From Kiritimatiellia bacterium (lineage in GTDB: Bacteria > Verrucomicrobiota > Kiritimatiellia > RFP12 > UBA1067): a stretch of 64,000 nt of DNA. The stretch covers positions 627-64,626 of the forward strand of contig JBAYXX010000008.1 of assembly GCA_041673345.1 (NCBI GenBank). The letters are read 5' to 3'. This document shows, in pieces, positions 23,488 to 48,118 of this stretch. The notes beneath the pieces were generated by a model. It worked only from the letters and a program-made list of their open reading frames with translations. It ran no database searches and had not been told where the DNA came from. Positions within the stretch are counted from its first letter, which is position 1, and every line of letters begins with the position of its first letter. Both the position numbers and the translations under genes were made by a program.

Positions 23488-24411
23488 ATGATAAATCGGC
23501 GTGAATTTCTTGAAAAGACAGCGGCACTTGCCGGAGTAAGCACATTGCCGGCATGGGGTCCGTTGGGCTGCGCAACGCAAGCCCGCTACCCAGCTTACGG
23601 GAATACTCTGCAGGACCGTCTCTGGATGTGGGGACATGACTCGGGGGTTTATGACGGAGCAAAGGGAAAATATAACATCCCGCTGAGCCCCCCGATCAGT
23701 ATGGCCGACGGCATCAAATACATGGGGATACCGAACGTCTGTGTGATTCGTCACAGAGTCGGGAACGACGAATACAACAAACAGTTCAAGGACGTGAAGC
23801 GGATTGCATGGACCCTCTCCATGGGCTCCAATCAGTCTTATCAGAGCTTGAAAAACTATGTCTTCGGTTTACGGGATACGATGCCCAACCTAACCGGCTA
23901 TTATTTAGATGACTTTTTCCGTTTCGGCGACAAGCCTGGGTTTGACCAGAATTCCGAGACTGTCCCCGCGCCAGCCTCACTTTCCTTGGATGAGCTAAAG
24001 CAGCTCCATGACGAAACGAAGGCCTACAAGCGCCGCCTTGATCTGGCAATCGTTTTGTACACCCATATGCTGTGCCCGGCGATCAAGCCTTACATGAAAT
24101 ACACCGATACTGTCTCGCTCTGGATCTGGAGCGGTAGCGACATCCAGAAAATTGAGGATAATTTCAAAAAATATCGTTCTCTGGTTCCTGACAAACCGAC
24201 CCTTCTCGGCATCTACATGTGGGACTTTGGGGGCAGAAAAGAGCTGAGTACAGAGTTTATGGGCAAACAACTTGACTATGCCTACAAGCTGTACAAGCAG
24301 GGACAAATCGAGGGGATGATTTTCCACTGCACACCGCTTTGCAACAAAAATCTTGCGGCTGTCGAATATGCGAAAAAATGGATTGCCGAGCATGGCGGGG
24401 AAAGCCGGTAG
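23488..24411 (+). CDS. Tat-exported hypothetical protein, possible (beta/alpha)8 fold
   Basis: NRREFLE Tat motif, possible lipoprotein Cys; GYYLDDFF and LGIYMWDFG motifs; GGAG SD. Confidence 0.65.
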   Translation: MINRREFLEKTAALAGVSTLPAWGPLGCATQARYPAYGNTLQDRLWMWGHDSGVYDGAKGKYNIPLSPPISMADGIKYMGIPNVCVIRHRVGNDEYNKQFKDVKRIAWTLSMGSNQSYQSLKNYVFGLRDTMPNLTGYYLDDFFRFGDKPGFDQNSETVPAPASLSLDELKQLHDETKAYKRRLDLAIVLYTHMLCPAIKPYMKYTDTVSLWIWSGSDIQKIEDNFKKYRSLVPDKPTLLGIYMWDFGGRKELSTEFMGKQLDYAYKLYKQGQIEGMIFHCTPLCNKNLAAVEYAKKWIAEHGGESR

Positions 24412-24425
24412 AAAAAATAACCGCT

Positions 24426-27227
24426 ATGCAATACTTCACGCCAATAACTACTCACACATTAGAACTGTCGAGGAAAGCCGTTTTGAAAACTGCCCTTGCG
24501 GTAAGCCTTTTACTAACAGCCAGCGGAGCCGATGCCGCAGTTTCAATGCGCACCATCGACGAAACCTGGCCCCCGCCTCCAGGGGAGGAGAGCTGGACAT
24601 TTGTAGAGGAGCTTAAGCAGCCTCTGCCCTTTGTTTTGTTCTGGAAGGAAGGCAGCTTGCCGCAGCCGGACCAGATCGATCTACGTGGTGGTTTGACTGT
24701 GAAACAAGCTTTCCCAGATGCGAAGGGCGTTCTTAAAACAGCGTATGCCGACCTCGACAACTTTATCGCCTTTGCGAAATTCGGCGGAGAGGGCAAACTG
24801 TCCATCATAACCGAAAAGGCCGCGACAGATGTCCCTGAGGCCTATTCGATCGCGATCTCGCCGGAAGGTATCCGACTGTTGGCCAGCGACACCGAGGGTA
24901 TTCGGCGTGCGATTTTCCACCTCGAAGAGTTGATCTCCACCGCAGACGGCCCCTTTCTCAACTCCGGAGTCATCCGGAAAAAGCCGTGGCTGAAGAATCG
25001 CATCACGCGCTGTTTCTTTGGGCCGATCAAGCGTCCCCCGCTGAACCGCGACGAACTGATGGATGATGTTGATTACTATCCCGATGCCTACCTCAACCGC
25101 CTGGCGCACGAAGGCGTGAACGGACTGTGGCTGAGCATCGAGTGGAAGGACATCACCAAGACCTCCTTCCGCGAGCCGAGCCCCGACATGGAGAAAAGGC
25201 TCGCGAAACTGCGCCGGACCGCCGAGAAATGCGGGCGCTACGGAATCAAACTGTGGCTCTACTCAAACGAGCCGGTGGGCTTCCATTCTGAGGACGATCC
25301 CATGCGTAAGGCGCATCCCGAGATGGTCGGAGCGGGCTGGGGCGCACGCCACTTTGTCTGCCCGAATTCCGAGGCCGGGCAGAAGTTCATCTATAAATCG
25401 ACCCGCTGGATCTTCTCCCAGGTTCCAGGGTTGGGCGGTATGATCAACATCTCGCTGGGCGAGGGCGGCTCCTCTTGTCTTGATTCGGTGGGTGTCCAGC
25501 GGGATGCGCGTCCGGCTTGTCCGCGCTGCGCTCTTGTTCCGAACTGGCAGACTCTCGCGGCAGGCCAGGGCGCGATGGCGAGAGGAGTCAAGGATGGCAA
25601 TCCGAATGCGGAGTACATCTGCTGGCTCTACATGCCGTCGTGGAAACCCTTTGCCCCTTGGGTGTATGAGCTTGGCTCCCACATGCCCAAGGATGTGACG
25701 CTGCAAGTGAACTTTGAATCAGGTGCTGTCAAGTACCAGTTGGACCGTCCGCGGGTGGGCGGCGACTACTGGCTGTCGTTCATCGGACCGTCCGAGCGTT
25801 TTGCTCGGATCGCCGGACAAGCGGCGGCCAACAAGACACCGATGGCTGCGAAGCTCCAGGTGGGATGCTCGCACGAAGCGGCGACCATTCCGTTTATGCC
25901 CGTGCCCTCGCTTCTCTACCGTAAGTACAAGGAGATGCCCAGCATGAACGTCACCTCTGTGATGCAGTGCTGGTACTTCGGCAACTATCCCGGCGTGATG
26001 AACCGTGCGGCAGGGCGGCTGGCTTTTGAAGACTTCTCGAAGACAGAGGAGGATTTCCTACAGACGTTGGCCCGTCCAGAGTGGGGCGGAGAGGCGGATC
26101 TCGTTGTGCGGGCATGGGGTCACTTCTCGGCAGGGTTCCAGCATTTCCCGCTCTCAACGCGCTTCCAATGGTGGGGTCCTATGCATGCGGCGCCAGTCTG
26201 GCCGCTGCATCTGAAGCCAGCTCTCAAACAGCTGCAGCCCACCTGGCTGGTCGGTGGCCCCTGCGGCGATGCCATTGGTGAAGTGCTAGACAACCACACC
26301 CTTGATGAGACCGTTATTTTGTCGCGGCAAATGTCGGAGGAGTGGAACAAGGGCGTTGCTCTCATGAAATCAATCGAACCCAAATTCAAGGGAAACCGTG
26401 AGCGTCTTCTTGATATCGGCCTGACAGAAGCGCTAGGCATCCAATTCGCGAGCGCGTACAACATGCAGAACTTCTACCTTATGCGCCGTCAGCTGTTCGA
26501 CCTCTCCCCTACTGACGCCTTGCAGCGTTTGGCAGAGATGGAAGAGCTCGTTCGCCTGGAAATCAAGAACAGCGAACGGCTGACAGTGCTCTGTGCTGCG
26601 GATTCGCGCCTAGGCTTCCACTCAGAAGCCGAGCGGCATCAGTATTCCGTCACGCGGCTCAAATGGCGCGTGGAGGTACTGAACGATCTGCTCGCGACCG
26701 AGTTCCCTGAATACCGGAGTGCCTTCCAGGCAGGGCAACAGGTGTCGCGGTTCGCCGAGGGGCGCGCGGTTTACACCTGCGGTGCGGGATGGGTCGATTG
26801 CAAGACCTACCAATGGCAGGCAGAGCGCGCTGGGGGTGATCTTGTCCTGAAGGTGGAGATGAAGGCTCCAAAGTCGGCAGGGTCCTTTACCCTCTATCTC
26901 TGCGATCCGTTTGTGACCGCACACTATTGGGAGATCAACCTCGCGACCTCTGGCTCCGTATCGGATTCCCGCGCAATCGGCTTGCGGGCTGAACCATACA
27001 CAACACCTACTGGCGCGAACGGCGTGACGCTGCGCATCCCGTCAGCTGGGTTGCAGGCCTTCGACCCTTCGGGGCGCGCGTATGCCTTCAACATCTTCAA
27101 CAGCGGCCTCGGCGCGGACAACTGGCCCACAGGCATGGGCGAATCAGACCTCAGCACCTACCGCCTGGCCCTCAGCCGCTTCAAACCCCAAAAAATGGGC
27201 TACATCCGCACAACCCCGTCCAAATAA
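24426..27227 (+). CDS. large secreted protein with GH20-type N-terminal (zincin-like) domain and unassigned catalytic-like domain
   Basis: PEAYSIAISPEGIRLLASDTEGIRRAIFHL; RK-type Tat-like leader; start set at ATG 24426. Confidence 0.65.
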   Translation: MQYFTPITTHTLELSRKAVLKTALAVSLLLTASGADAAVSMRTIDETWPPPPGEESWTFVEELKQPLPFVLFWKEGSLPQPDQIDLRGGLTVKQAFPDAKGVLKTAYADLDNFIAFAKFGGEGKLSIITEKAATDVPEAYSIAISPEGIRLLASDTEGIRRAIFHLEELISTADGPFLNSGVIRKKPWLKNRITRCFFGPIKRPPLNRDELMDDVDYYPDAYLNRLAHEGVNGLWLSIEWKDITKTSFREPSPDMEKRLAKLRRTAEKCGRYGIKLWLYSNEPVGFHSEDDPMRKAHPEMVGAGWGARHFVCPNSEAGQKFIYKSTRWIFSQVPGLGGMINISLGEGGSSCLDSVGVQRDARPACPRCALVPNWQTLAAGQGAMARGVKDGNPNAEYICWLYMPSWKPFAPWVYELGSHMPKDVTLQVNFESGAVKYQLDRPRVGGDYWLSFIGPSERFARIAGQAAANKTPMAAKLQVGCSHEAATIPFMPVPSLLYRKYKEMPSMNVTSVMQCWYFGNYPGVMNRAAGRLAFEDFSKTEEDFLQTLARPEWGGEADLVVRAWGHFSAGFQHFPLSTRFQWWGPMHAAPVWPLHLKPALKQLQPTWLVGGPCGDAIGEVLDNHTLDETVILSRQMSEEWNKGVALMKSIEPKFKGNRERLLDIGLTEALGIQFASAYNMQNFYLMRRQLFDLSPTDALQRLAEMEELVRLEIKNSERLTVLCAADSRLGFHSEAERHQYSVTRLKWRVEVLNDLLATEFPEYRSAFQAGQQVSRFAEGRAVYTCGAGWVDCKTYQWQAERAGGDLVLKVEMKAPKSAGSFTLYLCDPFVTAHYWEINLATSGSVSDSRAIGLRAEPYTTPTGANGVTLRIPSAGLQAFDPSGRAYAFNIFNSGLGADNWPTGMGESDLSTYRLALSRFKPQKMGYIRTTPSK

Positions 27228-27291: not shown

Positions 27292-28812
27292 ATGAAAACT
27301 ATGACCTTTATCTTTGTCCTGTTTGCGGTTTCTTTTTTCTTTCCTATCAAGGCTGGCCATGCGGCCCAGCTTTATGCGGGAGTCGCCAAGGCCGATATAA
27401 CGGATTATACAGCGGGTCCCGTCAATGATCCGCTGTATGTCAAAGCCTTGGTACTGAAGAACAGTTCTAATACTGTTGTGCTGATTACGGTGGATGCGGT
27501 GGCCATCGGGAAACTCGGCAGGATCAGCAACGATTTTCTTCCAAACATACGCGCGCAACTGCAGAAGGACCTGAACATCCCGCCTTCGCATGTCCTGGTC
27601 AATGCCAGCCACTGCCATGGCGTGGTGCGTACAGACACCGCGCGGCTTGCAGTGCAGACCGTTGAGGCTGCCTGTAGCAATTGGGTGCCTGTGACGGTCG
27701 GCACTGGTATCGGCCGCGAGACCCGGATTATGGAAAATCGCCGCCTTAAGCTGAAGAACGGAGAGGAGGCGGATGTCCGCCGCGCTTACGCGCTGCCGCC
27801 GGACGAGGAGGTTGTTGCCAGCGGACCGGTTGATCCGGATATCGGCGTACTCAGGATCGACAAGAGAGACGGAAAACCGCTGGCAGTGGTTTACAACTTC
27901 GCATGCCATCCCATCATGGGGGTTCCGAGCGGAGGAAACACAGCGGACTATCCTGGGTTCGCTTCCAGTGTGATCGAAGAGACGATCGGGGACGGCGCTG
28001 TCGCGCTGTTTTTACAGGGATGCGCAGGAGACATCAACCCGGCGTTGTACAAAACAGACCACCAACTTCATGATGCGGAATCGCTGGGCAACCTGCTGGG
28101 CCTCAGCACAATGCGGGCAATGAAAAAAATAGAGACTCAAGATGATGGCGAGCTTAAGGTTATCAATGAAGTGATCGCGTTGCCGCGAGGAACGGATCTG
28201 GCACAACGAATCTCACGGCTGGAGAAAGCGCAGGCACGGCTGGTTCAATCTCTGAAAGGTACCAGCCTTAACCTCAAGGCCTTTATTCCATTGTATGTGC
28301 AATACGCCCTGTCCAGTAATTATCCCTCCTATTACTCTTACCGGTATCTGCAAAATCAGTCGCCTGGCAGAGATGAACTGACTAAACTCGACACCAAAAA
28401 CCGGGCGAACATGGAGAGCTACATTCAGAACGTGCATGTCATGGAACGCCTGACGAGAATTCAAGAAAACCTTCGTTTACTAAAGATGCATCACGCGCAA
28501 AACATGGCTTCCGGTCAGAAAACAGTCGATGCCGAAATCGTTGTCCTGAAAATCGGAGACTTTGTATTGGCCACGTTTCCAGGAGAGCCCTCCGCTGAAA
28601 TAGGACTGAACATCAAGCGCCACTCGCCCTATCCGTTCACCTTCGTGTCCGGCTGCTGCAACGGTTACCTCTACTATGCTCCGACCGCGCAGCAGCGCAA
28701 CAATCCGGGTTTTGCTCAAGAGGATTGCGATTGCCTTTTGGCGCCGGAATGGCAGAAGGCGTATGAAGAAAAGGTCGCGCTTCTCTTGGAAAAATTGTCA
28801 CATAAAAACTAG
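27292..28812 (+). CDS. secreted neutral/alkaline ceramidase-like amidohydrolase
   Basis: DPLYVKALVL, VNASHCHG, NFACHP, QGCAGDINP, FPGEPSAEIG, GYLYYAPT; AAGGAG SD before ATG 27292. Confidence 0.75.
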   Translation: MKTMTFIFVLFAVSFFFPIKAGHAAQLYAGVAKADITDYTAGPVNDPLYVKALVLKNSSNTVVLITVDAVAIGKLGRISNDFLPNIRAQLQKDLNIPPSHVLVNASHCHGVVRTDTARLAVQTVEAACSNWVPVTVGTGIGRETRIMENRRLKLKNGEEADVRRAYALPPDEEVVASGPVDPDIGVLRIDKRDGKPLAVVYNFACHPIMGVPSGGNTADYPGFASSVIEETIGDGAVALFLQGCAGDINPALYKTDHQLHDAESLGNLLGLSTMRAMKKIETQDDGELKVINEVIALPRGTDLAQRISRLEKAQARLVQSLKGTSLNLKAFIPLYVQYALSSNYPSYYSYRYLQNQSPGRDELTKLDTKNRANMESYIQNVHVMERLTRIQENLRLLKMHHAQNMASGQKTVDAEIVVLKIGDFVLATFPGEPSAEIGLNIKRHSPYPFTFVSGCCNGYLYYAPTAQQRNNPGFAQEDCDCLLAPEWQKAYEEKVALLLEKLSHKN

Positions 28813-31811
28813 CGTCTCAACGGAGTCTCCCCTTGGCTGATAACTGTCACATTTGCCCGTGAGCGTATGGCGGATGCGTCGCATCCAAATGTTATATTAT
28901 TGTCACCTGCCGCAATCACCGGGAGTTCGCCTTCCAGCTTCACTTGCTGAATCAACTCGCGCTTGGGTCCGTACAGCCGACAGTCGTCCCGTCCGTAAAG
29001 TTCGAGATAACACCCGCTTTCTATCTCCACTGGAAACATAATCGTCTGTCCCCCGACCGTAATCGTAGGCTTTCGAATCTTGTTATTAATCAAAGGCAGT
29101 GCCTTGACGGGGCTTAAGTAACAGGTGACTTGCTGGTGAACAGGAACATGGTTATACCAAAGATGCAACCATTCCACATTTTTAAAACTCAGCTTTTCAC
29201 GATACTGTGAATAAATGCAGCGGCCGTAGGGCCATGAGAAATCTTCAAACCTTTCGGATTCCGGCTCGACGAATTCGAAGTAACGCCAACCCGTGAAGTC
29301 TACAATCACGTAATGGTCGGCGTGGGCTTCAAAAGGTTTTGGTGAGCCGAGCTGGAAATTCATGACCTCACCCTTGCCGTCGCCGTGAATCCAGACCCCC
29401 ATTCCCTGATATTTGTCGAGATCCAAGGGGGTGGCGAAGGTTTTCCCTGTTCGAAGCCAGGATCCCTGCTGCGGCCGATAGATCCGTTCCGCATGATCAA
29501 ACAAAGAGTATCTATCCCCAGGATCCGAGGTGTACACGCGTTTTGATGAACCGGCATTCTTCGCACTCCAGCAACCGCTGACATCACCTACCTTAACTGG
29601 GTCTGATGCTGGCCTGATATCCCCGGTCAAACCAGGAGCCGCAGCCTGATACGAGTAAGTCTTCCCGCTATTCAGAATGATCTCAGTGGAATTACGCTCA
29701 TTAAACTCATCCGGCTTCTGGAAGTCAGCAAGGATGATGTTTTCCGCAGCATTATATGGCCCGGCGGACATTAACGCCTGGATACGAATCTTAAGAGGTT
29801 GAGTACCGAACTTGTTCTTGTAACGCCAGACATTGGTTACGCCGTCAACGGCCTCAACTTTGTGCCGGGCATATTGCCTCGGAAGAAACTCCCACTCGCC
29901 ATCCGCAGCCTGTCTCAGCGTAAATTCAGCACCTGGCTCGCGGAGCTTCGCCTTGACCGCTTCCGGGAAATATTTCTGCTGGCGCAGGGTTTCATATCTC
30001 TTGATGATCGGTGCCACCTGATGCAGCCATGGCTCTTTCGCATACATGTCAGGGTTGACGGTTTGCAACGAATAGCTGGAATCCGTGCCGAGTCCTTTGC
30101 ACCACATGTACTCGACATCGTCATCGAACGTGACATCATGCGCCGAGTCGACCCATGCCAGCACCCGGGACCAGCCCAGGTGTCGCGGCATAAAAATACG
30201 CCGACAACCCTCGTTTGAATCACAGTGAATATCGATAAATTTTTTATGCGCGCGAACCGCATGATCCCACGCTTGCAGACGGGAGCGCACAAACCACAGG
30301 TGGTGATGAAAGGTGGCCATTTCCATCATGGTCGGCCGAGTGAAGCACTTATAGACTTCAAAGGCAAACTTGGTGCCATAGTGCCACCGATTCTCTTCGC
30401 CTCCAATGACGTGCGCGCCATCGAGTCCGTCGAGGTAGGTGAAGTCAAAACCGCATTCGTTTATGACCGTTGAGATCCGGTTGGCCACCTCGCTGAACAG
30501 CGTAGAATCACCATCCGGCAGGAAACACCCCCAGCACTCTTTAAGATGGTGAACCTTCGCGCCTTTAGCGTGGGGCACGGGTTGGGTTCCGCAAGCGCCG
30601 CGCTTGCATTTGGCCACACCGTAAGGGCGGGTATCGTTGACGATGCTGTACTCAATCAATTCATCGTCGATCTGCAAGGTCATACTGCGGCGGATAAAAT
30701 AAGTGATATACTTTGGCAGATCAATGGTCGGTTCGTCCACTTGCAGGGCGGTATCGCCCGCGCCGATGGCGTTTGTAAGCGTGTAACTGCGTTCCTTGGC
30801 CAGCCGTGGATCCGGAACTGGCGTAACCCAGGCACAGCGCTTGTTGATTGAGAAGGACATAGTATGCAGCCCGGCAAGGATGCCGGCGGCGTGTAGTTTA
30901 TCGATCACGGCCTTCACGCTGCGGCGGCCCTTAGGATACAGTGCCGGAAAAGGTTCATAATCGCCGTAGTTCAGGGATCCGCAGAAATCGATCTGTGTGA
31001 AGCCCAAAGCGCGGCAGAGATCGATCCATGAATCGACCGTCTTTTCAGTGGGCACACCGAACAGGTAACTGCCATAGGGAAGGTTGCTGTCCATGGCCCA
31101 CGGCCCGCCCAGAGGCGAGTGCGGCATGCCCGGCGCGGCACCAACCATGACCTTCAGCGCCTCGCGCATATCCGCGTAAGGGCAGGCGACCAACCCGACC
31201 TGTGCGCCTGTCAAACCGAAACGACGATAACAAGCCGCCCACAGATGCTGCTGCGGTCCGGGAAGCTCTTCAACATTGGTTAGAAGATTGAGTGCCAGCG
31301 TTCCAGCCGAAAACACCTCATCGGCCTTGACCTGCAGAGTGGTCGGAAGGTTTACAAACACCAGCTCATCGACCGCGCCCGCGATGGATTCGACCTCAAA
31401 AATAAAGTAATGGGAGTGGATCTCGACCTTGATGACCGCGCTGGTTCTGGAGTGCCCGAATTTAATGGTTATCCGGCCATCGGCATATGAAACAGCTGTG
31501 GCATCGTAGACACGCCCATTTTTCTTTATCTGTGCGCAGGCTGACCGTGGACAGCCCTCAATATAATCAATGCCCGTTTGTTTGCTGGTGAACGTCAGAT
31601 TGCGTCCATCACTGCCAATAACATATTTAACGAACTGGTTCTCAAGAGTGAGAGCCTTGTTGCTAAAAGATGGCAGGGCAAATCCGCCAACCGTGACCGC
31701 ACCGAAACTCAGCATGAACCTGCGGCGGCTGATCCCGCCTAAAGAAGCATCGGGGCCGGAATAGTTGTAGAGCAAAGTGTTGTCCTGTTGTGTATCTGTA
31801 AGCATAACCAT
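28809..31811 (-). CDS. Tat-exported ~1000-aa hypothetical glycoside-hydrolase-like protein (paralog of 39741..42698)
   Basis: SRRRFML; YGSYL, KLHAAGI..GLHT, INECGFDFTYLDGLDG, RSRLQAWD shared with the paralog. Confidence 0.7.
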   Translation of the reverse strand: MVMLTDTQQDNTLLYNYSGPDASLGGISRRRFMLSFGAVTVGGFALPSFSNKALTLENQFVKYVIGSDGRNLTFTSKQTGIDYIEGCPRSACAQIKKNGRVYDATAVSYADGRITIKFGHSRTSAVIKVEIHSHYFIFEVESIAGAVDELVFVNLPTTLQVKADEVFSAGTLALNLLTNVEELPGPQQHLWAACYRRFGLTGAQVGLVACPYADMREALKVMVGAAPGMPHSPLGGPWAMDSNLPYGSYLFGVPTEKTVDSWIDLCRALGFTQIDFCGSLNYGDYEPFPALYPKGRRSVKAVIDKLHAAGILAGLHTMSFSINKRCAWVTPVPDPRLAKERSYTLTNAIGAGDTALQVDEPTIDLPKYITYFIRRSMTLQIDDELIEYSIVNDTRPYGVAKCKRGACGTQPVPHAKGAKVHHLKECWGCFLPDGDSTLFSEVANRISTVINECGFDFTYLDGLDGAHVIGGEENRWHYGTKFAFEVYKCFTRPTMMEMATFHHHLWFVRSRLQAWDHAVRAHKKFIDIHCDSNEGCRRIFMPRHLGWSRVLAWVDSAHDVTFDDDVEYMWCKGLGTDSSYSLQTVNPDMYAKEPWLHQVAPIIKRYETLRQQKYFPEAVKAKLREPGAEFTLRQAADGEWEFLPRQYARHKVEAVDGVTNVWRYKNKFGTQPLKIRIQALMSAGPYNAAENIILADFQKPDEFNERNSTEIILNSGKTYSYQAAAPGLTGDIRPASDPVKVGDVSGCWSAKNAGSSKRVYTSDPGDRYSLFDHAERIYRPQQGSWLRTGKTFATPLDLDKYQGMGVWIHGDGKGEVMNFQLGSPKPFEAHADHYVIVDFTGWRYFEFVEPESERFEDFSWPYGRCIYSQYREKLSFKNVEWLHLWYNHVPVHQQVTCYLSPVKALPLINNKIRKPTITVGGQTIMFPVEIESGCYLELYGRDDCRLYGPKRELIQQVKLEGELPVIAAGDNNITFGCDASAIRSRANVTVISQGETPLRR

Positions 31812-32164: not shown

Positions 32165-33028
32165 TCAGACAGTGAGGCGAGTAAGGAATGCGCGAGCTTT
32201 AGCCGCTTCGGCGGCTAAGTGTGGCAATTCGCCTGGGGAGAGGCACTCTACCACCAAAGGACCCTGGGTGAACCCGCCTTGTTTAAGGCGGGCGAATACC
32301 TTGGCGAAATTGACGATACCGGTGCCGGGCGTGATGGAAACCTCCTTTGGTGGACGGAAGTCTTTGACGCTCATACCAGCCACAACGCCGTCAACCGCGG
32401 CGGCATCATTGACCGGATCGAGGGCGCCATCAGAGTAATAAAAGATGTTGCCAGGATCATACCAGAGACGGAAGCTCTTGTGGTTGATCTGGTCGATAAT
32501 CCTCCGACAAAGGGAGCCGTTAGCGTTGTTTCCGCCGTGCGGCTTGACGCTCAAGACAACTCGCTTCTCAGCCGCGTAATCGCAACAGTCAGCCACGATG
32601 CCATAATAAGCCTTGGAACGCTCTTCATTCGTGCCTCCGAGCAGCAAGTGCGGACAGCCGCATGCGGCGCAGTTATCGACCAGACGTTTGAGCCCGTCGG
32701 GGTTGTCCAGCGGAAATCTCCCGCCCCAGAGCGAAAGCAAGCCTAATCCGCGCTGTTTGGCCTCAGCACCGACCGAAGCGGCCTCTTCCAACGTGGAGTC
32801 AACACTGAGAACAAGCTTGTTTTTACTCTTGGTGGTCATCAGTCCCGCGTACTTGAAGCCCGCGGCGGCAATCGCGTCAAGCGCGACACGGTAGTCATAC
32901 TCAGCCCACGGACGGGTATAACAGCCGATTTGGAAAAGAGAAGCACCAGATGACGGGGGTGCGCTCTGTACGGGTAGTGAAGCCAAGGCGGCGGATAGAC
33001 CGCCCAAAAAATGACGTCGTGTGTTCAT
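32165..33028 (-). CDS. Tat-exported sugar-phosphate isomerase/epimerase-family (xylose isomerase-like TIM barrel) protein
   Basis: MNTRRHFL; KPHGG, WYDPGN, SVKD, TPGTG-VNF, VVEC metal-site motifs. Confidence 0.82.
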   Translation of the reverse strand: MNTRRHFLGGLSAALASLPVQSAPPSSGASLFQIGCYTRPWAEYDYRVALDAIAAAGFKYAGLMTTKSKNKLVLSVDSTLEEAASVGAEAKQRGLGLLSLWGGRFPLDNPDGLKRLVDNCAACGCPHLLLGGTNEERSKAYYGIVADCCDYAAEKRVVLSVKPHGGNNANGSLCRRIIDQINHKSFRLWYDPGNIFYYSDGALDPVNDAAAVDGVVAGMSVKDFRPPKEVSITPGTGIVNFAKVFARLKQGGFTQGPLVVECLSPGELPHLAAEAAKARAFLTRLTV

Positions 33029-33098
33029 GAAAATACCTTTCTTGCAGGGAGGGATGTCCCGAACTGTTCCTAGCATATCCGGGAAGACCACACCTCTT

Positions 33099-34367
33099 TT
33101 ATGCTGTTGTGATTTTGCGTTTCAGTGGATCGTAAATGGTCTTGCGCCCGGTTTCGTAAGATTCCATGGCCATGAGTACAGCCACGGCGTGCTGGTAACC
33201 AGCATCGATGGATGCGTTGGGTGTCTCGCCGCTGCGTAAACACTGGAGCCAGTTGAGGTAGTGGTCCGGATGGTCTACGGGCTTAACGTCGTTCTTGCCG
33301 CGAATGGTGCCATCGCGGCGCGGCGAGCCCTCGCAGTTATAAGTTGGCGCGGCCCAGTTATCCACACTGAGCACACCCTTATCGCCATAAAACTTACGGG
33401 TGTTTCCGCCACTGTTTCCCATGTTGTTGGCGACACTGACAAGAAATCCTTCGGGATAAACCCATGTGGCCTGGATACAGTCGGGGTTGGTGAACTTGTG
33501 TTCATCCTTCCATGTATAGGTCCCGCCGAGGCAGACGCACGACAAAGGAAATTTGGTGCCGGTGATAAAATGCATCATGTCAATGAAGTGGGCGCCGAAG
33601 CCGGGGGTTGGGCCTTTTGAGAATTCATAATACCCGTACCACCCTGAATAGAGATCAGCGCGGAACAGGCGCATGGGGCGTCCGTTCAGAAACTCCTTCC
33701 AGTCAACGTCTTCCTCTTTGACATCTTTGAGGTAGCGGTACCAGTAGGGTTTTTCGCTGTTGCGACACTCCTCAACGCGCGAGAGCTGACCGAAAATACC
33801 GGTGCGGAAAAGGTCACGCGCGCCGACGATGCCAGGGAGGCTGCGAAGCTGGGTGCCGACCTGAACAACAGTTCCCGCCGCTTTGACGGCATCGACCGCT
33901 CGCACAAGGCCGTCGAAGTCGTAGGCCATCGGTTTTTCAACATAGATGTGTTTGCCAGCGCGGGCAGCGGCCTCGAGGTGCAGCGTATGCACATGGTCGG
34001 GCGAAGCGATGGTGACTGCATCCAACTCTTTGCAATCAAGCAACTGACGGTATGAGACGCACTGGAGTGCGTCACGACCAAACCACTCTTTAGCCATACC
34101 GTTGGCCTCTTCGCGGGCGATGCGCCATGGGTCTGCGACTGCGACAACCTCGAAGTTCATCGCCTCAAGATGTTTATAGAGGCCCTTCATGTGGGCGTTG
34201 CGTCCGCGGTCGCCGCAGCCGATAATGCCGATACGGATACGATCATTGGCACCGATTGAACGACGCCGGGTGGCGGCGGAAACGCACGAAGACAGTGCAG
34301 TTGCCGCGGCCGTCGCACCTGCGGTTTTCAGTAAATTCCGACGGGATATCTGATCTTTCATACTCAT
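33099..34367 (-). CDS. Tat-exported Gfo/Idh/MocA family oxidoreductase
   Basis: SRRNLLK; IGIIGCGDRG, ASPDHVH, YVEKP, QVGTQ-RS, GAHFID. Confidence 0.88.
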   Translation of the reverse strand: MSMKDQISRRNLLKTAGATAAATALSSCVSAATRRRSIGANDRIRIGIIGCGDRGRNAHMKGLYKHLEAMNFEVVAVADPWRIAREEANGMAKEWFGRDALQCVSYRQLLDCKELDAVTIASPDHVHTLHLEAAARAGKHIYVEKPMAYDFDGLVRAVDAVKAAGTVVQVGTQLRSLPGIVGARDLFRTGIFGQLSRVEECRNSEKPYWYRYLKDVKEEDVDWKEFLNGRPMRLFRADLYSGWYGYYEFSKGPTPGFGAHFIDMMHFITGTKFPLSCVCLGGTYTWKDEHKFTNPDCIQATWVYPEGFLVSVANNMGNSGGNTRKFYGDKGVLSVDNWAAPTYNCEGSPRRDGTIRGKNDVKPVDHPDHYLNWLQCLRSGETPNASIDAGYQHAVAVLMAMESYETGRKTIYDPLKRKITTA

Positions 34368-38194: not shown

Positions 38195-39625
38195 TCACTC
38201 CCCCGTTTGTAACCGACTGAACATGCCCAGCAATTGTTCGATCATCTTGGGAGCAGCCTCAAATTCGAGTCGGCTGGTGCCGAGCCATGTTTCGTAGCCA
38301 CCCAGTTTGTGCTGCTCGACAGTCGGTAAGTAACCGAAATAACCGTGCGCCAAAGAGACCACAAACGTGGGTTTAAAGGGGCTCCGAGCTTTTAACTCCA
38401 ATCCGATTTCGCTGAAGACCTCAACCGGCATAGTTGCGATGCCAACCTCGCCGATACGAAAGGTCTGCAACGGAAAACTCCAGCGTTCCGGCAATGTGGC
38501 CATTTCTAAGGCACGGCTAGCGTAACTCTTCTCCATCACGTTTGGTTTGGCATTAGGATCATTTTTAGCAAGAACATCTTTGGCCCATTCGATCTGTTCC
38601 TGATTCGGACGACGGAGCTGCAGATTGATCTGCTCAAATGAAACACTGAGCGGTACGCTGTCGTGCCATTGGATCGTTTTATAGGCAGCATGGACTGCCT
38701 GAGCCACATCGTTAGCGACCTCCCGCATCCTCACATAAGGCTCTCTTTTCACGGGTTTTTTGGTGAAATCAATATTGTTGATATTGCCACTCGTGCCGTT
38801 GCTCATTATGGCCACAAACGGCGGGTCTTGGTGTTCGGCCTCCAGCAACTGTCGCATACGGTCGTCAAACATTCCAAAGTAATCAGCTGAGATGTCTGCA
38901 CCGCGTACGCCACCAACATAATGCAGTGAATAATTGGACAGCAGCCCAATGGGGCGGCCTTCAAGCGACTTTACAGCAATCAAGCAGACTTGGGGATCCG
39001 TCGGCCCTGCTGGTCGATCCAGATTGACATTGCCCTGCCCTGGATTCATCCTCACCAGATCGTTCGTGCTTCCAAAGGGATTCATCGGCATCGTGCCGGG
39101 TTTCATGTACCAGCGGCGGCAAAAAACATGCTGCGGCACCGACGCAGTCGCCCAACCGATGCGGGCTGGCTCGAGGTTGTTGATCGCGCAACGCACTGCA
39201 TCGGCGATGCGGCGCACCATAAATTTCTGGTAGTCATCCAACTCAGGTTTATGGTTCCAGCGATCACCAATTGCGCTGATCGCAGAGTGCGAGTGTACGG
39301 CGGAAACGAGTATATTCGCGGCTGGCATCCCAGTCTCTTTTTCGACCCGCCGCCTCGCCTCATCGCTTACCGCCCCCGAAATACCCAACACGTCGCACAC
39401 AACAAACGCAACGCGTGTCTTGCCGTTATCCAAAACAAGACACTTCGCCCACAGATCGTCATGCACATGCGTGGCCGGATAGGGGCTAAACCCACCAATA
39501 ATCATTGCGCCCAAGTCTGGTGTGATATTACCCTTTGCCACACCCGCACGAAATGTGTCGGCTGCACTAACAAACATTCCGAAAACCATCATGATACTTG
39601 CTGCGATCATTCCTAACCGTTTCAT
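38195..39625 (-). CDS. secreted neutral/alkaline ceramidase-like amidohydrolase
   Basis: Signal peptide; HDDLWAKCLVL, SAVHSHS, NYSLHY, NGTSGNINN, PVEVFSEIG, GYLPT...GGYET. Confidence 0.78.
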   Translation of the reverse strand: MKRLGMIAASIMMVFGMFVSAADTFRAGVAKGNITPDLGAMIIGGFSPYPATHVHDDLWAKCLVLDNGKTRVAFVVCDVLGISGAVSDEARRRVEKETGMPAANILVSAVHSHSAISAIGDRWNHKPELDDYQKFMVRRIADAVRCAINNLEPARIGWATASVPQHVFCRRWYMKPGTMPMNPFGSTNDLVRMNPGQGNVNLDRPAGPTDPQVCLIAVKSLEGRPIGLLSNYSLHYVGGVRGADISADYFGMFDDRMRQLLEAEHQDPPFVAIMSNGTSGNINNIDFTKKPVKREPYVRMREVANDVAQAVHAAYKTIQWHDSVPLSVSFEQINLQLRRPNQEQIEWAKDVLAKNDPNAKPNVMEKSYASRALEMATLPERWSFPLQTFRIGEVGIATMPVEVFSEIGLELKARSPFKPTFVVSLAHGYFGYLPTVEQHKLGGYETWLGTSRLEFEAAPKMIEQLLGMFSRLQTGE

Positions 39626-39740: not shown

Positions 39741-42698
39741 CTACAGAGGTTTGCCTTCACCAATCAAGGTGACCTGTACCCGAGCATCCTCTTTGCCGGG
39801 GTTTTCGCACTGAAAGAAAACATCGTTTCTGCCGCTCTTCAAGGTGGGAATCTCTCCCTCCGGCACGATGCCACAAACGAGTTTGCCGTCCTTGTCATAA
39901 AGTTTGCAGTTGTCCTTTGATTTCAGCTCCACATACATGCCGGATTCCATTGTAACAGGGAAGGTGAGTTTTGAGCCGTTGATCGCAATAGTCGGATTTT
40001 TGGTTTTCTTAGCGACAATGTTCAGTGCCCTGACCGGACCGATTTTGCAGGTGACGGTTTTGTTCGCCGGAAGATTGTTGAACCAGATTTCAAAGGAAGT
40101 GATCCTATCGTAGGAGGCTCTTCCAGAGTAATGGTCGTAGACGAAATAGCCGCCGGATTCCGGCCAGATATAATCACTGCTGCGAGTTGATTCCGACTCC
40201 ACAAGCTCAACGTATTTCCAGCCGGTAAAATCAAGCGGGACGTAATGGTTGCTCATGCGCCAATGCGGAAGACGGGTGATGGTGCGGAAATTAAGGAGCG
40301 CGCCGCTGCCGTCGCCGTAAAGCCAGACACCAATCGCCAATTTTTTATCGAGGTTGAGGGGCGGTTCGAAGGATTTACCCAAAGAGACATAGGTGCCTTC
40401 CCGGGGAGAGGCGCCAGTGCTCCGTCCAGTGAATTCGACGGCGGTTTCCCCAGTGGCGGGCACAGTGGCACTGCCTGGCTTTAAGGAGCAGGTCACCCCG
40501 TCGGCTGCATTGGAGGGGCGAAACTCTGCAGTGTTTTTAGCGTCAAGCAAGATTGCCTGATCTGAATCCACAGCCACGGAAACAAGAGATTCAAGGCGCA
40601 GTTTAACCGGCTGGGCCGCATACTCATTTTTCACGTTCCACTTGGCCGACGGATGGGCGAGGCCGCAAACCTTATGTTTCTTGTAGAAAACCGGTTTAAA
40701 ATTCCACCGGCCATCCACCTCACGAAACAGGGTGAAATCCTTTCCGACCTGCCGCAATTGGGCGCGGACAGAGTCGCCGAAGTAGCTCTGGTGCCGTAGC
40801 TCCTCATATTGTTTAATCATCGCTAGAAAATCCCGATAGACAGGATGGGCCTGCAGTTTGTCTTCGTCAATGCTGCAGTTCAGGGACAACCCTGCGTTGT
40901 TACCGATCATTTTGCAGCAGAGGTATTCGATGTCGTCGAAATAGGTCGGTTCCTTTTTCGGGCCGTCCCATGCGTGGAAAGACCACCAGCCGATCTGGAG
41001 GGGGAGAAATAGCGGGTAAGTTTCCATGGGGGCGTATTTTTCGATCAGCGGCAGGTGCCCGCTCCAGCAACCATGTTGGTATTCCGAGTTGGCTTTCATG
41101 GAGGCGATGTGAATGTCAATAAAACGCTTGTAACCTTGGGTCGCTGAGTCCCAGGCCTGATAACGGGAGCGGTAGAACCACCAGCCGTGCGTCATGCCGG
41201 CGTATTCCATCCCGATCGGTTTTTTGAGATTCCTTGCGATTTCAAAGACGAACTTGTCGCCGTAATACCAATAGTTTTCCTCTCCCCACATGCTGCGGAT
41301 ACCCTCAATGGCATCGAGATAAACTCCGTCGAAGCCACACTCGTTAATTACATCGGCGGTGTTTTTCGCAATTTCATTGAAAAGCGGAGAGTCTGGGTTC
41401 GGTACGTATCGGCCACCCCAGAACGTCTTGAGAAGGAAGGCGCTCACCCCTGTCTTGTGCGCCGCGATTTTCGTCCCGTGAAATCCGCGCTGGCAGCCGG
41501 TGAACGTGAACGGCGCTTCGGATGTGACCCCTTTGTATTTGATGATCTCGTCGCCAATCCTCAACGTCTGGTTGTTCGTAATCCTAATTCCGAACTCCAG
41601 AGAATTCCCCGCCGTCGATTCCCGGACCACGACCTCCTTTGCCGTTTCGGAAAGTGGCTCGACGAGCGTGTACGTCGCGACAGTGTCCAGCCCTGGGTGC
41701 GGAACCGGCGTCACGTATTTCGAGGATGGAGCAATATAGCACGCATAGGTGTGCAAGATCGAGGAAATTCCCGCCGCGTGAAGTTTGTCCACAATCTTCT
41801 TGAACGACCTCCATCCTTCCGGAAATTTCTTCTTGTCCAGCTCAAAACTGCCGAACAGGAAAAAGTTTTTGCCGCCGCCATGGTTGTTGATCTGATTAAA
41901 GCCAATGCGTTTACAGTTTTCGATCCACTCATCGGTCGTTTCCTCTGTCAGGGTACCGAAATTCATGAGATAAGAACCGTAACCTTCCTTTGCGGAGATA
42001 GCCCAGGCGCCGCCCTGGTCACTGAACGGGATATCCGGGGCGGCTTTCGTCAGGATGTCGCGGATGACCGGGAGAATTTGTTTTTGCGGAACCCCGATAA
42101 AGGCCGCCTTTGCCCCGTTGATCCCGAATTTGTTATAGCAGGTCGCCCAAAGTTCGGTCTGAAGGGCGGGAAGCTGGTGTACATGCGTAAAGAGGTTGAG
42201 TTTGAGCGCGCAGGCCGCAAACGGCTCCCAAGGCATTGCCACTAAGCTCAGAGGAATATTCAGAAACGTCAGCGATTCAGGATTCCCGGTGACGCTTTGG
42301 ACTTCGTAAAGAACTCGTCCCTCCTGTTTCATCACCTTAATTACGGCTGAAAGGTCGGTGTCCTCAAATTGAATTGAGAGAATGTTATCCTGGACAGAAA
42401 CAGTGGAGGGAGAAAAAGTTTTCCCATCCTTCTTTGCATAGGCGCAGTATGAATCTCCGCTTTTAAGATAATCCTTTCCAGATGCCTTATCAATGAAACG
42501 GACGTTCTTGCCCCCGGCTGTAAACTCATAGGTAAAGGTATCGCATCCGATGGTCACGTTTCCAGCTGGCTTCGGCTTCATCGCCATTGCTGAAGCGTCC
42601 GTTGAAAGGAGCAGCAAGGGCACAGTGATCGCCATGGTTGCGCTAAGCGCCCTGATGTTAGAAAATTGCTTTTCCACCTTCACCCTATTTGTTTTCAT
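39741..42698 (-). CDS. secreted ~985-aa hypothetical glycoside-hydrolase-like protein (paralog of 28809..31811)
   Basis: YGSYL, KLHAAGISSILHT, INECGFDGVYLDAIEG, RSRYQAWD, DFTGWKY-E-VE-ES shared with the paralog. Confidence 0.7.
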   Translation of the reverse strand: MKTNRVKVEKQFSNIRALSATMAITVPLLLLSTDASAMAMKPKPAGNVTIGCDTFTYEFTAGGKNVRFIDKASGKDYLKSGDSYCAYAKKDGKTFSPSTVSVQDNILSIQFEDTDLSAVIKVMKQEGRVLYEVQSVTGNPESLTFLNIPLSLVAMPWEPFAACALKLNLFTHVHQLPALQTELWATCYNKFGINGAKAAFIGVPQKQILPVIRDILTKAAPDIPFSDQGGAWAISAKEGYGSYLMNFGTLTEETTDEWIENCKRIGFNQINNHGGGKNFFLFGSFELDKKKFPEGWRSFKKIVDKLHAAGISSILHTYACYIAPSSKYVTPVPHPGLDTVATYTLVEPLSETAKEVVVRESTAGNSLEFGIRITNNQTLRIGDEIIKYKGVTSEAPFTFTGCQRGFHGTKIAAHKTGVSAFLLKTFWGGRYVPNPDSPLFNEIAKNTADVINECGFDGVYLDAIEGIRSMWGEENYWYYGDKFVFEIARNLKKPIGMEYAGMTHGWWFYRSRYQAWDSATQGYKRFIDIHIASMKANSEYQHGCWSGHLPLIEKYAPMETYPLFLPLQIGWWSFHAWDGPKKEPTYFDDIEYLCCKMIGNNAGLSLNCSIDEDKLQAHPVYRDFLAMIKQYEELRHQSYFGDSVRAQLRQVGKDFTLFREVDGRWNFKPVFYKKHKVCGLAHPSAKWNVKNEYAAQPVKLRLESLVSVAVDSDQAILLDAKNTAEFRPSNAADGVTCSLKPGSATVPATGETAVEFTGRSTGASPREGTYVSLGKSFEPPLNLDKKLAIGVWLYGDGSGALLNFRTITRLPHWRMSNHYVPLDFTGWKYVELVESESTRSSDYIWPESGGYFVYDHYSGRASYDRITSFEIWFNNLPANKTVTCKIGPVRALNIVAKKTKNPTIAINGSKLTFPVTMESGMYVELKSKDNCKLYDKDGKLVCGIVPEGEIPTLKSGRNDVFFQCENPGKEDARVQVTLIGEGKPL

Positions 42699-44689: not shown

Positions 44690-46126
44690 TCATTCAGCTG
44701 GCAGCGGTGTAATCTCACCGACCTTAGGCGTCACGCCGTTCGGGAAGCAGACGAGACGGTATCCGTAAATTCCGTTTGCAGTGGAAGGCGCCGTCGCATA
44801 ACGATAAGCCGGCGTCGAATAGGTGGCAGTTTGAAGATGGTTGCCACCGTGCAGGATGCGGCTGGTGCCACTGGCGCAGCCAGCGTAATCGGCGGCGTCA
44901 ACCCGGAACATCTGGAGCGAGGTATCGTACTCGACGCCAGAGAGCGTACCCGACATCCGTCCGACTGGAGCCCAGTCAAGACACCACTCGCAGACATTGC
45001 CGTGCATATCGTAGAGCCCCCATGCGTTCGGTTTGAAAAGGCCCACAATGTCCGTCAGATCGCCGGTACGGGAGTTTGAGAAGCAACCGTATGCGACAAC
45101 AGCGTTATTGAAATCCGTAACCGCTTGACCAATGGCAACGGTCCCAACGGTTGCGAGAATGGTGTCGAAGGTACGGCTGATCCCGTCGCTCCAGAGCGTT
45201 GTTGTCCCAGCACGACAGGCATATTCCCATTGCGCGTCAGTAGGAATGTCGACATCAAAACCAAGTGCATCGCGGTACTTCTTCATCTGAGAACCCGCAC
45301 TGATCTGGTACCCAGTCGCCGGCCAATTGATCGACGGATTGTCCATAACCGCACCGCGCAGGGCATCGTAAGTGCGGTATTCTGTTGGAAGTTTCGGATC
45401 CATTTTGTTGCGGCTTACATTGCCTCCGCCCATTTTTACAGCCTGCGACTGGGTGAGCAGAAAAATGCCGATATAATAGGGTTGGCTTAGGGTGATGGTG
45501 TTCGTGGCTGGATATGCGCCCGGCAACAACCAGTTGGAACCACTGAAGCGATACCCGCAGCCGCCGGTCTTGAACGAGCCGGGATTGATACGACGGAAGA
45601 CAAGCTTGTCAGTCTTATAGATGTCGTTGGTCACGCCTGTCCAGACGATGGAATTTACGCCCGCCACCGGATTGGTCTCGACTGTGCCGTAAACGCCGCT
45701 GGCCAGATCCGCTTCATACACGTACGTGATCTGTCCCTCCGCACCGGCGGTCTTGGTCAGGTCCACGATCATGTAGAGCGGCGGCGTTATCGGTGCGAGC
45801 GTCACGCGGAACTTGGTCAGCACCTCTTCATTGGTGTACTGGCTTTGAGTGGGATCCCAGATGATCCGGCGCATGCCTTGGCCTGTCACCCCATATAGAT
45901 CGCCCGAGAGACCGACATCCAACGTGAGCGGCTGCGCGCCGTTGAAGGCCTGCACCGCGATATCCACGGCTGGCGTCGCGTCCGTTATCACGTAATCGAT
46001 ATCCACGAGCCGGCTCCACGGCCAGCGCTGCCGCACCGTGACACCGCTGATTGTCGGATCGTCCGCCATGGCACTCATTGACACAAACATCGCCATCATT
46101 CCAATCAAAACTTTCTTCGTTTTCAT
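44690..46126 (-). CDS. secreted formylglycine-generating-enzyme (SUMF1)/C-type-lectin-fold protein
   Basis: Signal peptide; TVRQRWPW---VDIDY N-domain, YKTDKLVFRRI, PTDAQWEYACRAGT, NAWGLYDMHGNVCEWCLD, GYRL. Confidence 0.85.
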   Translation of the reverse strand: MKTKKVLIGMMAMFVSMSAMADDPTISGVTVRQRWPWSRLVDIDYVITDATPAVDIAVQAFNGAQPLTLDVGLSGDLYGVTGQGMRRIIWDPTQSQYTNEEVLTKFRVTLAPITPPLYMIVDLTKTAGAEGQITYVYEADLASGVYGTVETNPVAGVNSIVWTGVTNDIYKTDKLVFRRINPGSFKTGGCGYRFSGSNWLLPGAYPATNTITLSQPYYIGIFLLTQSQAVKMGGGNVSRNKMDPKLPTEYRTYDALRGAVMDNPSINWPATGYQISAGSQMKKYRDALGFDVDIPTDAQWEYACRAGTTTLWSDGISRTFDTILATVGTVAIGQAVTDFNNAVVAYGCFSNSRTGDLTDIVGLFKPNAWGLYDMHGNVCEWCLDWAPVGRMSGTLSGVEYDTSLQMFRVDAADYAGCASGTSRILHGGNHLQTATYSTPAYRYATAPSTANGIYGYRLVCFPNGVTPKVGEITPLPAE

Positions 46127-46272: not shown

Positions 46273-48048
46273 TCAGTGGGCGAGGATCGCCGCCGCCAAC
46301 TCCCGGCGGGCATCTAATATGGCCTTAGGATCGCGCGTGTACCCCCACCACGTCGGAGCAATCCGATCAACAATTTTCCGCACGGCTGCGGCTCCGGCGC
46401 GTTGCTCAAGCAGGGCGAAATATTCATAGTCTTCCAGACCATCGCGAATGTTCTTCAGTCGCATGCTGGCGACTGGTCCCTGGATTCCACATGGAACGCC
46501 GGGATAAAAAAGATATCCCCCTCCGTTGAAGTGCTTGGGATGCGCAAATGCCGGGTTGCACCACGGCTCAATCACCTTGGTGATGGTGCTCCAGTAGAGC
46601 AGGCCCGTGATACCGTACTGCCGATTAATCCAAGTCGGCACGCGGTAAACCAGCAATGGCCGGTCAATGTGCCAATAAGGCGGATCTTTCTCGCGCATCT
46701 CTTCGTACTTGGGGTGATAATGCGGCGACCGCTGAACCAGTGCGGTATACGACCAGACCGCATCACCGTGCTTGAGTTTCTGATTGATCGTATCACGGTC
46801 GATAAACGACCAGAGCGGGCACCAGATATCGACCGCCGGATCAATGTCGGCCCAAGCAGGATCGTGGGGGTAGGTCTGCTCAGAGACAAGGCGTTTCAAC
46901 TCGGGAGCGGCCTGGTGTACGATGTCGCCTAAAACGATCACCTGCTCGTAATTCTCCGCAGTGTTGGGTTCGTCAATAAGGTAGGTGTGAGCTATGTCCG
47001 CCCAGCCGTTTGTCTTGACATACTGGTAGTAATCGCGGTAATAACGCAGGGCTTTTTCGCGCTGTTCAGGCAGAACAGTCTTGTAATTGACGTTTGTGGT
47101 GGAGTGAGGCAGGCGGTCGAAGGGCGAACGTGGAATTCGAAAATCTTTCACATGCAGCTTTTCGATGAACGCGCACAGCGCCGCGTGCCGATTCGTGTCG
47201 ATGTTCAGCGAGCCATCCGGATTAGCCTGCGGCAACAGGTGGCTTGGGATAGGCGGGTTGAGGCGGTGATCGGACATGGCTTGGCTGTAGCGCGCTTCTA
47301 TTTCAAGGCATTCAGCCGAGCCGCGTTTAACGCCGAAAAGTGAGGCTATACCCGAAAGGGTACCGAAACGATTGCGATGAGTCGCGCCGTCAGGCAGTTC
47401 AAAGTCCCACACGGTCAGCGTGACCGGGAGCTCGGCTTTACCCTTGTCCGCAGAGACTCGGAGCGTACCTCGATAGATGCCGGCCGGCACGCCCTTGGGC
47501 ACATGAACGTCGATCCAAACAGGCTGGTTCTGTCCCTCGAACACATCGAACGGCACAGCGTACATGTCGTGCCCGGTAGTGACCAGCGGTTCGCCCCAGC
47601 GCTCGCGCCTCTGGGCGCGCGGCTGGATGGGTTTGCCGGTGACCGGATCAATGAACGGAACGAGCGCGTCTGGATACAGCCCTGGCGGCAGCTCTGCCCG
47701 CGGCGTGGATATGCGGACGCGCACGTACTCCTCCCGATACAGCTTAATGCTGTCACCGGAAATTTTCGCGCCCCCTTCACCCACCAATTCGGAAAGTGCT
47801 ACTGAACTCACCTTCAAGCTTCCCTTCCCGGCGGCCACAACCACCTGGAACGACTCGACCTCGTTACGTGCGGCGGCGATCTCCACCGCAGGTGTTCCGA
47901 AGGGAGCTTCGTTTTGGAGAATGCGTTCCATGGCGTGGAGCGCAGTGAGCCCGATAACAGGTCGTTCAACAGCCAGAGCCGGGGCTGTCAGCAAAACCGA
48001 TGAGAGAACCAGAGTCAGTGTTGACACCAGAGCATTTGTTGTCTTCAT
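46273..48048 (-). CDS. secreted GH123-like / DUF4091 protein (tandem paralog 1)
   Basis: AARNEVESFQV, YPDALVPF, NQPVWIDVHVP, YLIDEPN, GYLFYPG, SMRLKNIRDGLEDYEY; GAGGAG SD before ATG 48048. Confidence 0.8.
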   Translation of the reverse strand: MKTTNALVSTLTLVLSSVLLTAPALAVERPVIGLTALHAMERILQNEAPFGTPAVEIAAARNEVESFQVVVAAGKGSLKVSSVALSELVGEGGAKISGDSIKLYREEYVRVRISTPRAELPPGLYPDALVPFIDPVTGKPIQPRAQRRERWGEPLVTTGHDMYAVPFDVFEGQNQPVWIDVHVPKGVPAGIYRGTLRVSADKGKAELPVTLTVWDFELPDGATHRNRFGTLSGIASLFGVKRGSAECLEIEARYSQAMSDHRLNPPIPSHLLPQANPDGSLNIDTNRHAALCAFIEKLHVKDFRIPRSPFDRLPHSTTNVNYKTVLPEQREKALRYYRDYYQYVKTNGWADIAHTYLIDEPNTAENYEQVIVLGDIVHQAAPELKRLVSEQTYPHDPAWADIDPAVDIWCPLWSFIDRDTINQKLKHGDAVWSYTALVQRSPHYHPKYEEMREKDPPYWHIDRPLLVYRVPTWINRQYGITGLLYWSTITKVIEPWCNPAFAHPKHFNGGGYLFYPGVPCGIQGPVASMRLKNIRDGLEDYEYFALLEQRAGAAAVRKIVDRIAPTWWGYTRDPKAILDARRELAAAILAH

Positions 48049-48118
48049 GTTGTTTGTCTCCTCTTTGTTTGTTGTTTTCATGTTATTTGCCCCCGCGATC
48101 AAATAAGCAGCACTGTCA

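Follow-up and report, generated by a model that had tools for sequence, protein, structure and literature searches.

The question raised by this 64,000-nucleotide stretch of DNA from a Kiritimatiellia bacterium (assembly GCA_041673345.1, contig JBAYXX010000008.1, positions 627 to 64,626 of the forward strand; the whole stretch is called the window below) is what two large genes in it, P0001 and P0002, code for. The original prediction, made from the letters of the DNA, had described them as an exported pair that could not be placed in a named family and had proposed them as a candidate new glycoside hydrolase (GH) family. We find that P0001 and P0002 are two of eight exported paralogs of this genome and that they belong to a large, uncharacterised family of multidomain proteins which, judging from predicted structures, is probably carbohydrate-active and built on a barrel of the clan GH-D type, closest to that of GH36. 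Set apart from named families in comparisons with Pfam, NCBIfam and the PDB, it is a candidate new glycoside hydrolase family within the alpha-galactosidase superfamily.

Two window genes and the family they belong to

The two genes, taken from the open reading frame (ORF) list and its translations, and the leader of P0001 are as follows.

28809..31811, minus strand: P0001 (paralog 1), 1000 amino acids, gene including the stop codon
39741..42698, minus strand: P0002 (paralog 2), 985 amino acids, with a Sec-like leader
31656..31811, minus strand: leader of P0001, residues 1-52, of the twin-arginine translocation (Tat) type, with ISRRRFML and a hydrophobic stretch, disordered in the model

Both ORFs are intact, and the coordinates that had been given for two collinear proteins of about 1000 amino acids are exact; the gap between them, put at 8 kb, measures 7.9 kb. 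Their paralogy is directly established: BLASTP gave 344 identities in 969 positions (36%, E = 0), collinear over nearly the whole length, and the eight shared motifs that had been quoted were all found in both proteins, namely, YGSYL, DKLHAAGI..LHT, VTPVP.P.L, C.RG..GT....H..G, INECGFD..YLD...G, RSR.QAWD, DD[IV]EY..CK, and DFTGW.Y.E.VE.ES. The assignment of one leader to the Tat type and the other to the Sec type also holds. The twin arginine of P0001 is retained in its closest homologs (VSRRDFML, VSRRDFLI, and LNRREFVV), although the Pfam and NCBIfam scans gave no match of P0001 to the TAT_signal hidden Markov model (HMM), and the leader of P0002 has a hydrophobic stretch followed by ASA-MA.

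The number of paralogs, given as two, had to be revised. Searching the whole assembly (4.63 Mb in 312 contigs, 88.8% complete) with the family profile yielded eight, which are 20-61% identical to one another; seven are near full length and one has 764 amino acids. All eight carry an export leader and retain the key residues described below. Conservation was assessed in 108 full-length members, whose identity to P0001 is 24-45%, and residues are numbered as in P0001. Among these divergent members, 32 have no leader, as do about 27 of the 42 in the P0001 clade, and presumably they are cytoplasmic because the sequence begins directly at the first conserved strand. Thus, the description of the family as exported stands for this genome and falls for the family overall.

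The family is large. P0001 matches more than 1,184 proteins, whose source names are all "hypothetical protein", and, clustered at 50% identity, the matches of an exhaustive HMMER search with P0002 amount to 1,732 clusters at the limit E <= 1e-3 and to 1,176 at E <= 1e-10. At least 530 family loci are present in GTDB species genomes, and the dominant groups are Planctomycetota, Verrucomicrobiota, Lentisphaerota/Victivallales, Kiritimatiellia, Armatimonadota, Hydrogenedentota, and Acidobacteriota. Oligosphaera ethanolica DSM 24202 is the sole cultured organism in the best 80 loci. Family genes 44-50% identical to P0001 were also seen at six loci (L028, L051, L053, L074, L078, and L089) in metagenome-assembled genomes (MAGs) labelled Bathyarchaeia, Bifidobacterium sp. 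or Nitrospiraceae. It is likely that these MAGs are mis-binned or mislabelled because the labels clash with the remaining distribution in the PVC group and Planctomycetota. Full-text literature searches found no paper about the family; a paper on GH176 that came up deals with an (alpha/alpha)6 enzyme and has no bearing on it.

Predicted fold and candidate catalytic residues

The fold that had been envisaged, a barrel with an inserted beta-domain and a C-terminal sandwich, is seen in AlphaFold2 models analysed with DSSP, where the C-terminal sandwiches number three. The model of P0001, built from a 42-sequence alignment, has a predicted local distance difference test score (pLDDT) of 88.2 and a predicted template modelling score (pTM) of 0.85, the leader being the sole disordered part (pLDDT below 50 over residues 1-50), and a barrel-only model from a 62-sequence alignment has a pLDDT of 90.3 and a pTM of 0.88. 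The domains of P0001 were delimited with DSSP, the barrel from the domain model and Foldseek, in which GH36 ranked at the top; full-length Foldseek alignments to GH101, GH36, and GH31 proteins of the same architecture bear out the N-terminal domain.

31182..31652, minus strand: N-terminal all-beta domain (beta-sandwich), residues 54-210
29934..31136, minus strand: predicted (beta/alpha)8 catalytic barrel including the insert, residues 226-626
30504..30857, minus strand: inserted beta-rich subdomain of about 118 amino acids, residues 319-436, between barrel strand 3 and helix 3
28812..29927, minus strand: three C-terminal beta-sandwich domains, residues 629-1000
29112-29459, minus strand: CBM11-like sandwich, residues 785-900, containing the DFTGWRYFE motif

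The barrel strands are residues 249-252, 273-277, 312-318, 457-461, 495-498, about 509-513, 543-549, and 579-583. The inserted subdomain occupies the position of 'domain B' in GH13 and carries E384, R404, T409, and H414. With the Pfam CBM_11 model, whose cut-off is 27 bits, P0001 and P0002 scored below threshold (12.9 and 12.5 bits, E = 0.1), while the homolog P0073 reached 36.7 bits at the equivalent position.

When the whole P0001 model was compared with the PDB by Foldseek, the nearest structures were GH101 endo-alpha-N-acetylgalactosaminidases (E 7e-16), a GH31 sulfoquinovosidase, GH36 enzymes, and the GH129 enzyme NagBb, with E-values from 7e-16 to 6e-8 and a sequence identity of 8-11% throughout. 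With the barrel alone, GH36 enzymes came first (8x1b, 9awt, 1zy9, and 4fnp; E ~3e-9, TMq 0.50, the insert being unalignable), and GH13, GH27, GH31, and GH66 followed at lower ranks. Pyruvate kinase was also among the barrel matches, and its B domain lies at the same insertion point after strand 3. The likeness to GH36 and GH129 that had been suggested is supported by these comparisons.

At the level of sequence the family stands apart, as had been predicted. Pfam-A and NCBIfam scans of P0001 and P0002 matched no family model, the weak leftovers being unusable (CBM_11 at E = 0.1, DUF3244 over 44 amino acids in P0002, and GlgX at E = 0.04), and Pfam Melibiase (PF02065) gave no match in either protein at E <= 1. 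PDB sequence searches with P0001 or P0002 singly gave no match. The family profile searched against the whole PDB gave at best a 52-amino-acid ungapped match to FpGalNase (GH36) spanning helices 1 and 2 and strands 2 and 3 (E 0.02-0.05), and hhalign of the 108-member alignment against 24 genuine GH36 proteins from related genomes gave 41% probability over 77 columns of the same segment (E = 2.8e-4). Beyond the insert, the best local alignment by hhalign pairs D461 with the Asp of the GH36 k-w-D motif and Y459 with its Lys, which at E = 0.46 is not significant; on this alignment we take Y459 to stand at the site of the sugar-binding Lys in the K-x-D motif of GH27 and GH36. These sequence signals are weak and agree with the structural ranking, as both point to GH36.

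It could be argued that the family is already in CAZy, as a recent GH family that has neither a Pfam model nor a solved structure or as a distant subgroup of GH36, in which case it would be unannotated and not new. CAZy gains several families yearly, and the GH36 signals, weak and consistent as they are, might satisfy its curators. We nevertheless think this unlikely, since neither Pfam nor NCBIfam recognises the family, no chain in a 2026 copy of the PDB matches better than E = 0.02, and the source names and the literature are as silent as described above.

Conservation within the family points to the candidate catalytic residues, which are listed here with their codons as verified in the sequence.

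30429..30431, minus strand: D461 of P0001 (YLD), proposed nucleophile, ending barrel strand 4 (457-461)
30264..30266, minus strand: D516 of P0001 (AWD), proposed acid/base, after the short strand 509-513 (apparent strand 6)
30660..30662, minus strand: E384 of P0001, third invariant carboxylate, in the inserted subdomain
41313-41315 and 41148-41150, minus strand: D462 and D517 of P0002, where the equivalents also include E384, R404, H414, and Y460

Six residues, E384, R404, Y459, D461, D516, and G546, are present in all 108 members, and three of them are carboxylates (E384, D461, and D516). Near-invariant are W547 (107), T409 (106), W506 (105), H414 (104), H316 (103), and Y249 (103), C402 is conserved in 94 members, and D564 is acidic in all but two. 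In clan GH-D, which comprises GH27, GH31, and GH36, the nucleophile is an Asp at strand 4 and the acid/base is an Asp after strand 6. The YLD aspartate, singled out earlier as the nucleophile, is the invariant D461, and its place at the C-terminal end of barrel strand 4 is that of the clan GH-D nucleophile, a role that we infer for it. Together, the placing of D461 and D516 in the model suggests a nucleophile and acid/base of the clan GH-D type and not of the type found in GH101, GH129, and GH13.

Gene neighbourhood, proposed mechanism and alternative readings

P0002 lies in a co-directional run made up of three GH123-like genes, an FGE-sulfatase-like gene, a DUF4838 (GH20-like) gene, P0002 itself, a ceramidase-N-terminal-like gene, and a gene for a PdxB-like dehydrogenase; CBM9 proteins are also among the window neighbours. 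P0001 is preceded by a Tat-GFO_IDH_MocA oxidoreductase gene and an AP_endonuc_2 TIM-barrel gene; another ceramidase-like gene directly adjoins it. The neighbours with their positions are:

24339-27227, plus strand: ORF of 962 amino acids
27082-28812, plus strand, and 38195-39625, minus strand: neutral/alkaline ceramidase N-terminal-like genes (E 7e-7 and 2e-13), one adjoining each paralog
32165-34367, minus strand: Tat-signal GFO_IDH_MocA and then AP_endonuc_2 (xylose-isomerase-like), directly upstream of P0001
44690-46126: FGE-sulfatase-like (formylglycine-generating-enzyme fold) gene
46273-48255 and 48119-49906, minus strand: adjacent GH123-like genes
49925-52066: third gene with a strong GH123 match, together with an F5/8 type C domain

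The GH123-like genes that lie side by side are a tandem duplicate of about 80% identity, and their longest ORFs overlap by 137 nt. The 962-amino-acid ORF has no Pfam or PDB sequence match and recurs at about 11 paralogous places of the genome; in a Lentisphaerae MAG (L016, 77% identity) it keeps synteny with the P0001 ortholog. The FGE-sulfatase-like genes are much expanded, with about 70 tblastn places for the query at 44690-46126, and GFO_IDH_MocA has about 35 places. GFO_IDH_MocA and AP_endonuc_2 are found near family genes elsewhere as well (e.g. L002), and this pair resembles the oxidoreductase and lyase steps of the oxidative 3-keto-glycoside cleavage route. The two ceramidase-like genes in the window are 24% identical to each other and belong to about 10 such genes in the genome; a PDB search by sequence with the ceramidase-like neighbour found no relative. 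Within 10 kb of a family gene they occur at 7 of 49 other long loci as against about 4% expected from the density in this genome, that is, about threefold. The six remaining paralogs of this genome have none beside them, and therefore we rejected an obligate ceramidase-like partner.

Some of the longer homologs are fused to other domains: CBM_11, above the cut-off and at the family's own C-terminal jelly-roll position, SGNH esterase, and lectin-like Laminin_G_3 domains. P0126, which is 45% identical to P0002, and P0160, P0203, and P0265 carry either a C-terminal SGNH esterase (GxDLY and Lipase_GDSL_3) or Laminin_G_3. The esterase and lectin-like fusions hint at acylated glycan substrates, and fusions and neighbours together support a carbohydrate-active role.

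For catalysis, stereochemistry, and substrate we propose the following. The enzymes would carry out retaining double-displacement hydrolysis, or transglycosylation, of an axially (alpha-D-type) linked glycoside, with D461 at the end of strand 4 acting as the nucleophile and D516 after strand 6 as the general acid/base. The insert of about 118 amino acids would cover the mouth of the barrel, by analogy with domain B of GH13, and its E384, R404, and H414 would probably shape the -1 and +1 subsites. Both window copies should act in the periplasm, P0001 being exported via Tat and P0002 via Sec. The substrate is probably a complex hexosamine-rich glycan, because the neighbours include GH123-like and GH20-like (DUF4838) hexosaminidases and FGE-sulfatase-like and amidase-like proteins.

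Several points weigh against this proposal. By sequence, no glycosidase family is matched significantly, and the link is made by predicted structure and sub-threshold sequence signals. The Lys of the GH36 K-x-D motif is replaced by Tyr here (YLD), and the GH36 CxxGGGR motif is without a counterpart. The segment that holds D516 is modelled with moderate confidence (pLDDT 72-83), and the proposed geometry of the D461/D516 pocket comes from strand positions in the model. Finally, no neighbour is conserved across 48 other loci with 177 flanking genes, in which no family recurs more than 7 times; the commonest are GFO_IDH_MocA (7), AP_endonuc_2 (4), and sugar-type regulators, and Ceramidase_alk occurs twice. 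Therefore, the context says little on the substrate, and the hexosaminidase context of the window may not be general to the family because many members are leaderless and come from soil, groundwater, and freshwater Planctomycetota and Armatimonadota.

The same barrel might serve sugar chemistry other than hydrolysis, and the family could consist of transglycosidases or synthases (like the raffinose synthase of GH36), glycoside phosphorylases, or eliminases resembling the alpha-glucan lyase of GH31. Such non-hydrolytic activities are found in clan GH-D families and so have a precedent. In addition, about one third to two thirds of the members are leaderless and hence would be in the cytoplasm, where transglycosylation and phosphorolysis are common, and the invariant R404 together with H414 could bind phosphate or another anion. 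Against this, all eight copies of this genome are exported to where hydrolysis is usual, and the fusions to CBM11, SGNH esterase, and lectin-like domains fit polysaccharide degradation. We consider a non-hydrolytic role quite improbable.

A different catalytic pair on the same fold has also to be considered. In GH101, GH129, and GH13, the strand-4 Asp nucleophile works with a Glu on strand 5, and P0001 has such a residue, E497, on strand 5 (495-498), 36 residues past D461 and retained by each of the eight paralogs here. GH101 has the best Foldseek E-values over the full length, and an insert placed after strand 3 recalls GH13. Of the 108 members, however, 80 have E at position 497, 12 have Q, 9 have D, and 3 have G, the replacements being in divergent members, whereas D516 is invariant, and we rejected E497 as the acid/base. 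Membership in GH101 or GH129 was likewise rejected, since the strand-5 Glu is not conserved and every comparison was negative: the Pfam models PF12905 (GH101) and PF11308 (GH129) found nothing in this genome, a reciprocal search, in which the family HMM was run against genuine members of the two families, gave no match at E <= 10, and hhalign against either family gave a probability below 1%. As the barrel alone ranks GH36 first, there is little chance that D461 and E497 are the catalytic pair.

These proteins might also be no enzymes but, for example, glycan-binding or scaffold proteins on a decayed barrel, or they might use unrelated chemistry, such as that of a metal-dependent enzyme with conserved Cys and His residues of the insert; C402, H414, and H316 are well conserved and could bind a metal. 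This is very improbable, for two carboxylates that stay invariant at the canonical strand-4 and apparent strand-6 positions over 24-45% identity are typical of a live enzyme and not of a decayed one.

The glycosidase of clan GH-D type that we favour is a solid target for enzyme discovery and not a conceptual surprise. Confirmation of its activity would give a function to more than 1,700 sequence clusters that at present are called 'hypothetical', with up to eight copies per genome. If the reading is true, the alpha-galactosidase superfamily would gain a new family that combines a GH36-like barrel with a GH13-style inserted subdomain, which is an unusual mix, and a gap would be closed in glycan-degradation models for bacteria of the PVC group, whose genomes are rich in unassigned large secreted proteins.

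Comparison with known glycoside hydrolases

GH36 is represented by FpGalNase of Flavonifractor plautii (8x1b, 9awt, and 9ayu), TmGalA (1zy9), and AgaA (4fnp), which share with the family an N-terminal beta-sandwich, a barrel, and a C-terminal beta-sandwich. It gives the best barrel match and the sole sequence-level signal, and FpGalNase, an alpha-galactosaminidase, is the nearest single protein; in the model of the present family, too, one Asp ends strand 4, and another follows the apparent strand 6. The differences are that identity is 8-12%, that the family has an insert of about 118 amino acids after strand 3 with an invariant E and R and the near-invariant H414, and that its members have about 950 amino acids, including two extra C-terminal sandwiches of which one is CBM11-like, whereas GH36 proteins have about 530-740.

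GH101 (SpGH101, 5a59; EngBF, 2zxq) and GH129 (NagBb, 5wzq) have a similar order of beta-sandwich, barrel, and several beta-sandwiches, but their global TM-scores against the P0001 model are 0.27-0.30, with a root mean square deviation of about 28 A. GH13 (clan GH-H) resembles the family in its domain B, a subdomain inserted between strand 3 and helix 3, and in a His at the end of strand 3, with barrel matches at E ~1e-7; it ranks below GH36 and gives no sequence signal, and its Asp/Glu/Asp triad is not reproduced here because E497 is variable.

The FpGalNAc-deacetylase and FpGalNase pair provides a model for a route in which a glycan is deacylated and then cleaved. By analogy, and as a long shot, the family might form a new clan GH-D family whose -1 subsite is built by the insert (Glu, Arg, and His; Tyr replaces the GH27/GH36 Lys) and which would take a sugar that bears a charge, for instance a uronate, an amino sugar or one that is sulfated, after neighbouring or fused deacylases have acted. 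The deacylase candidates here would be the ceramidase-like amidases beside both window copies and the SGNH esterase of P0126.

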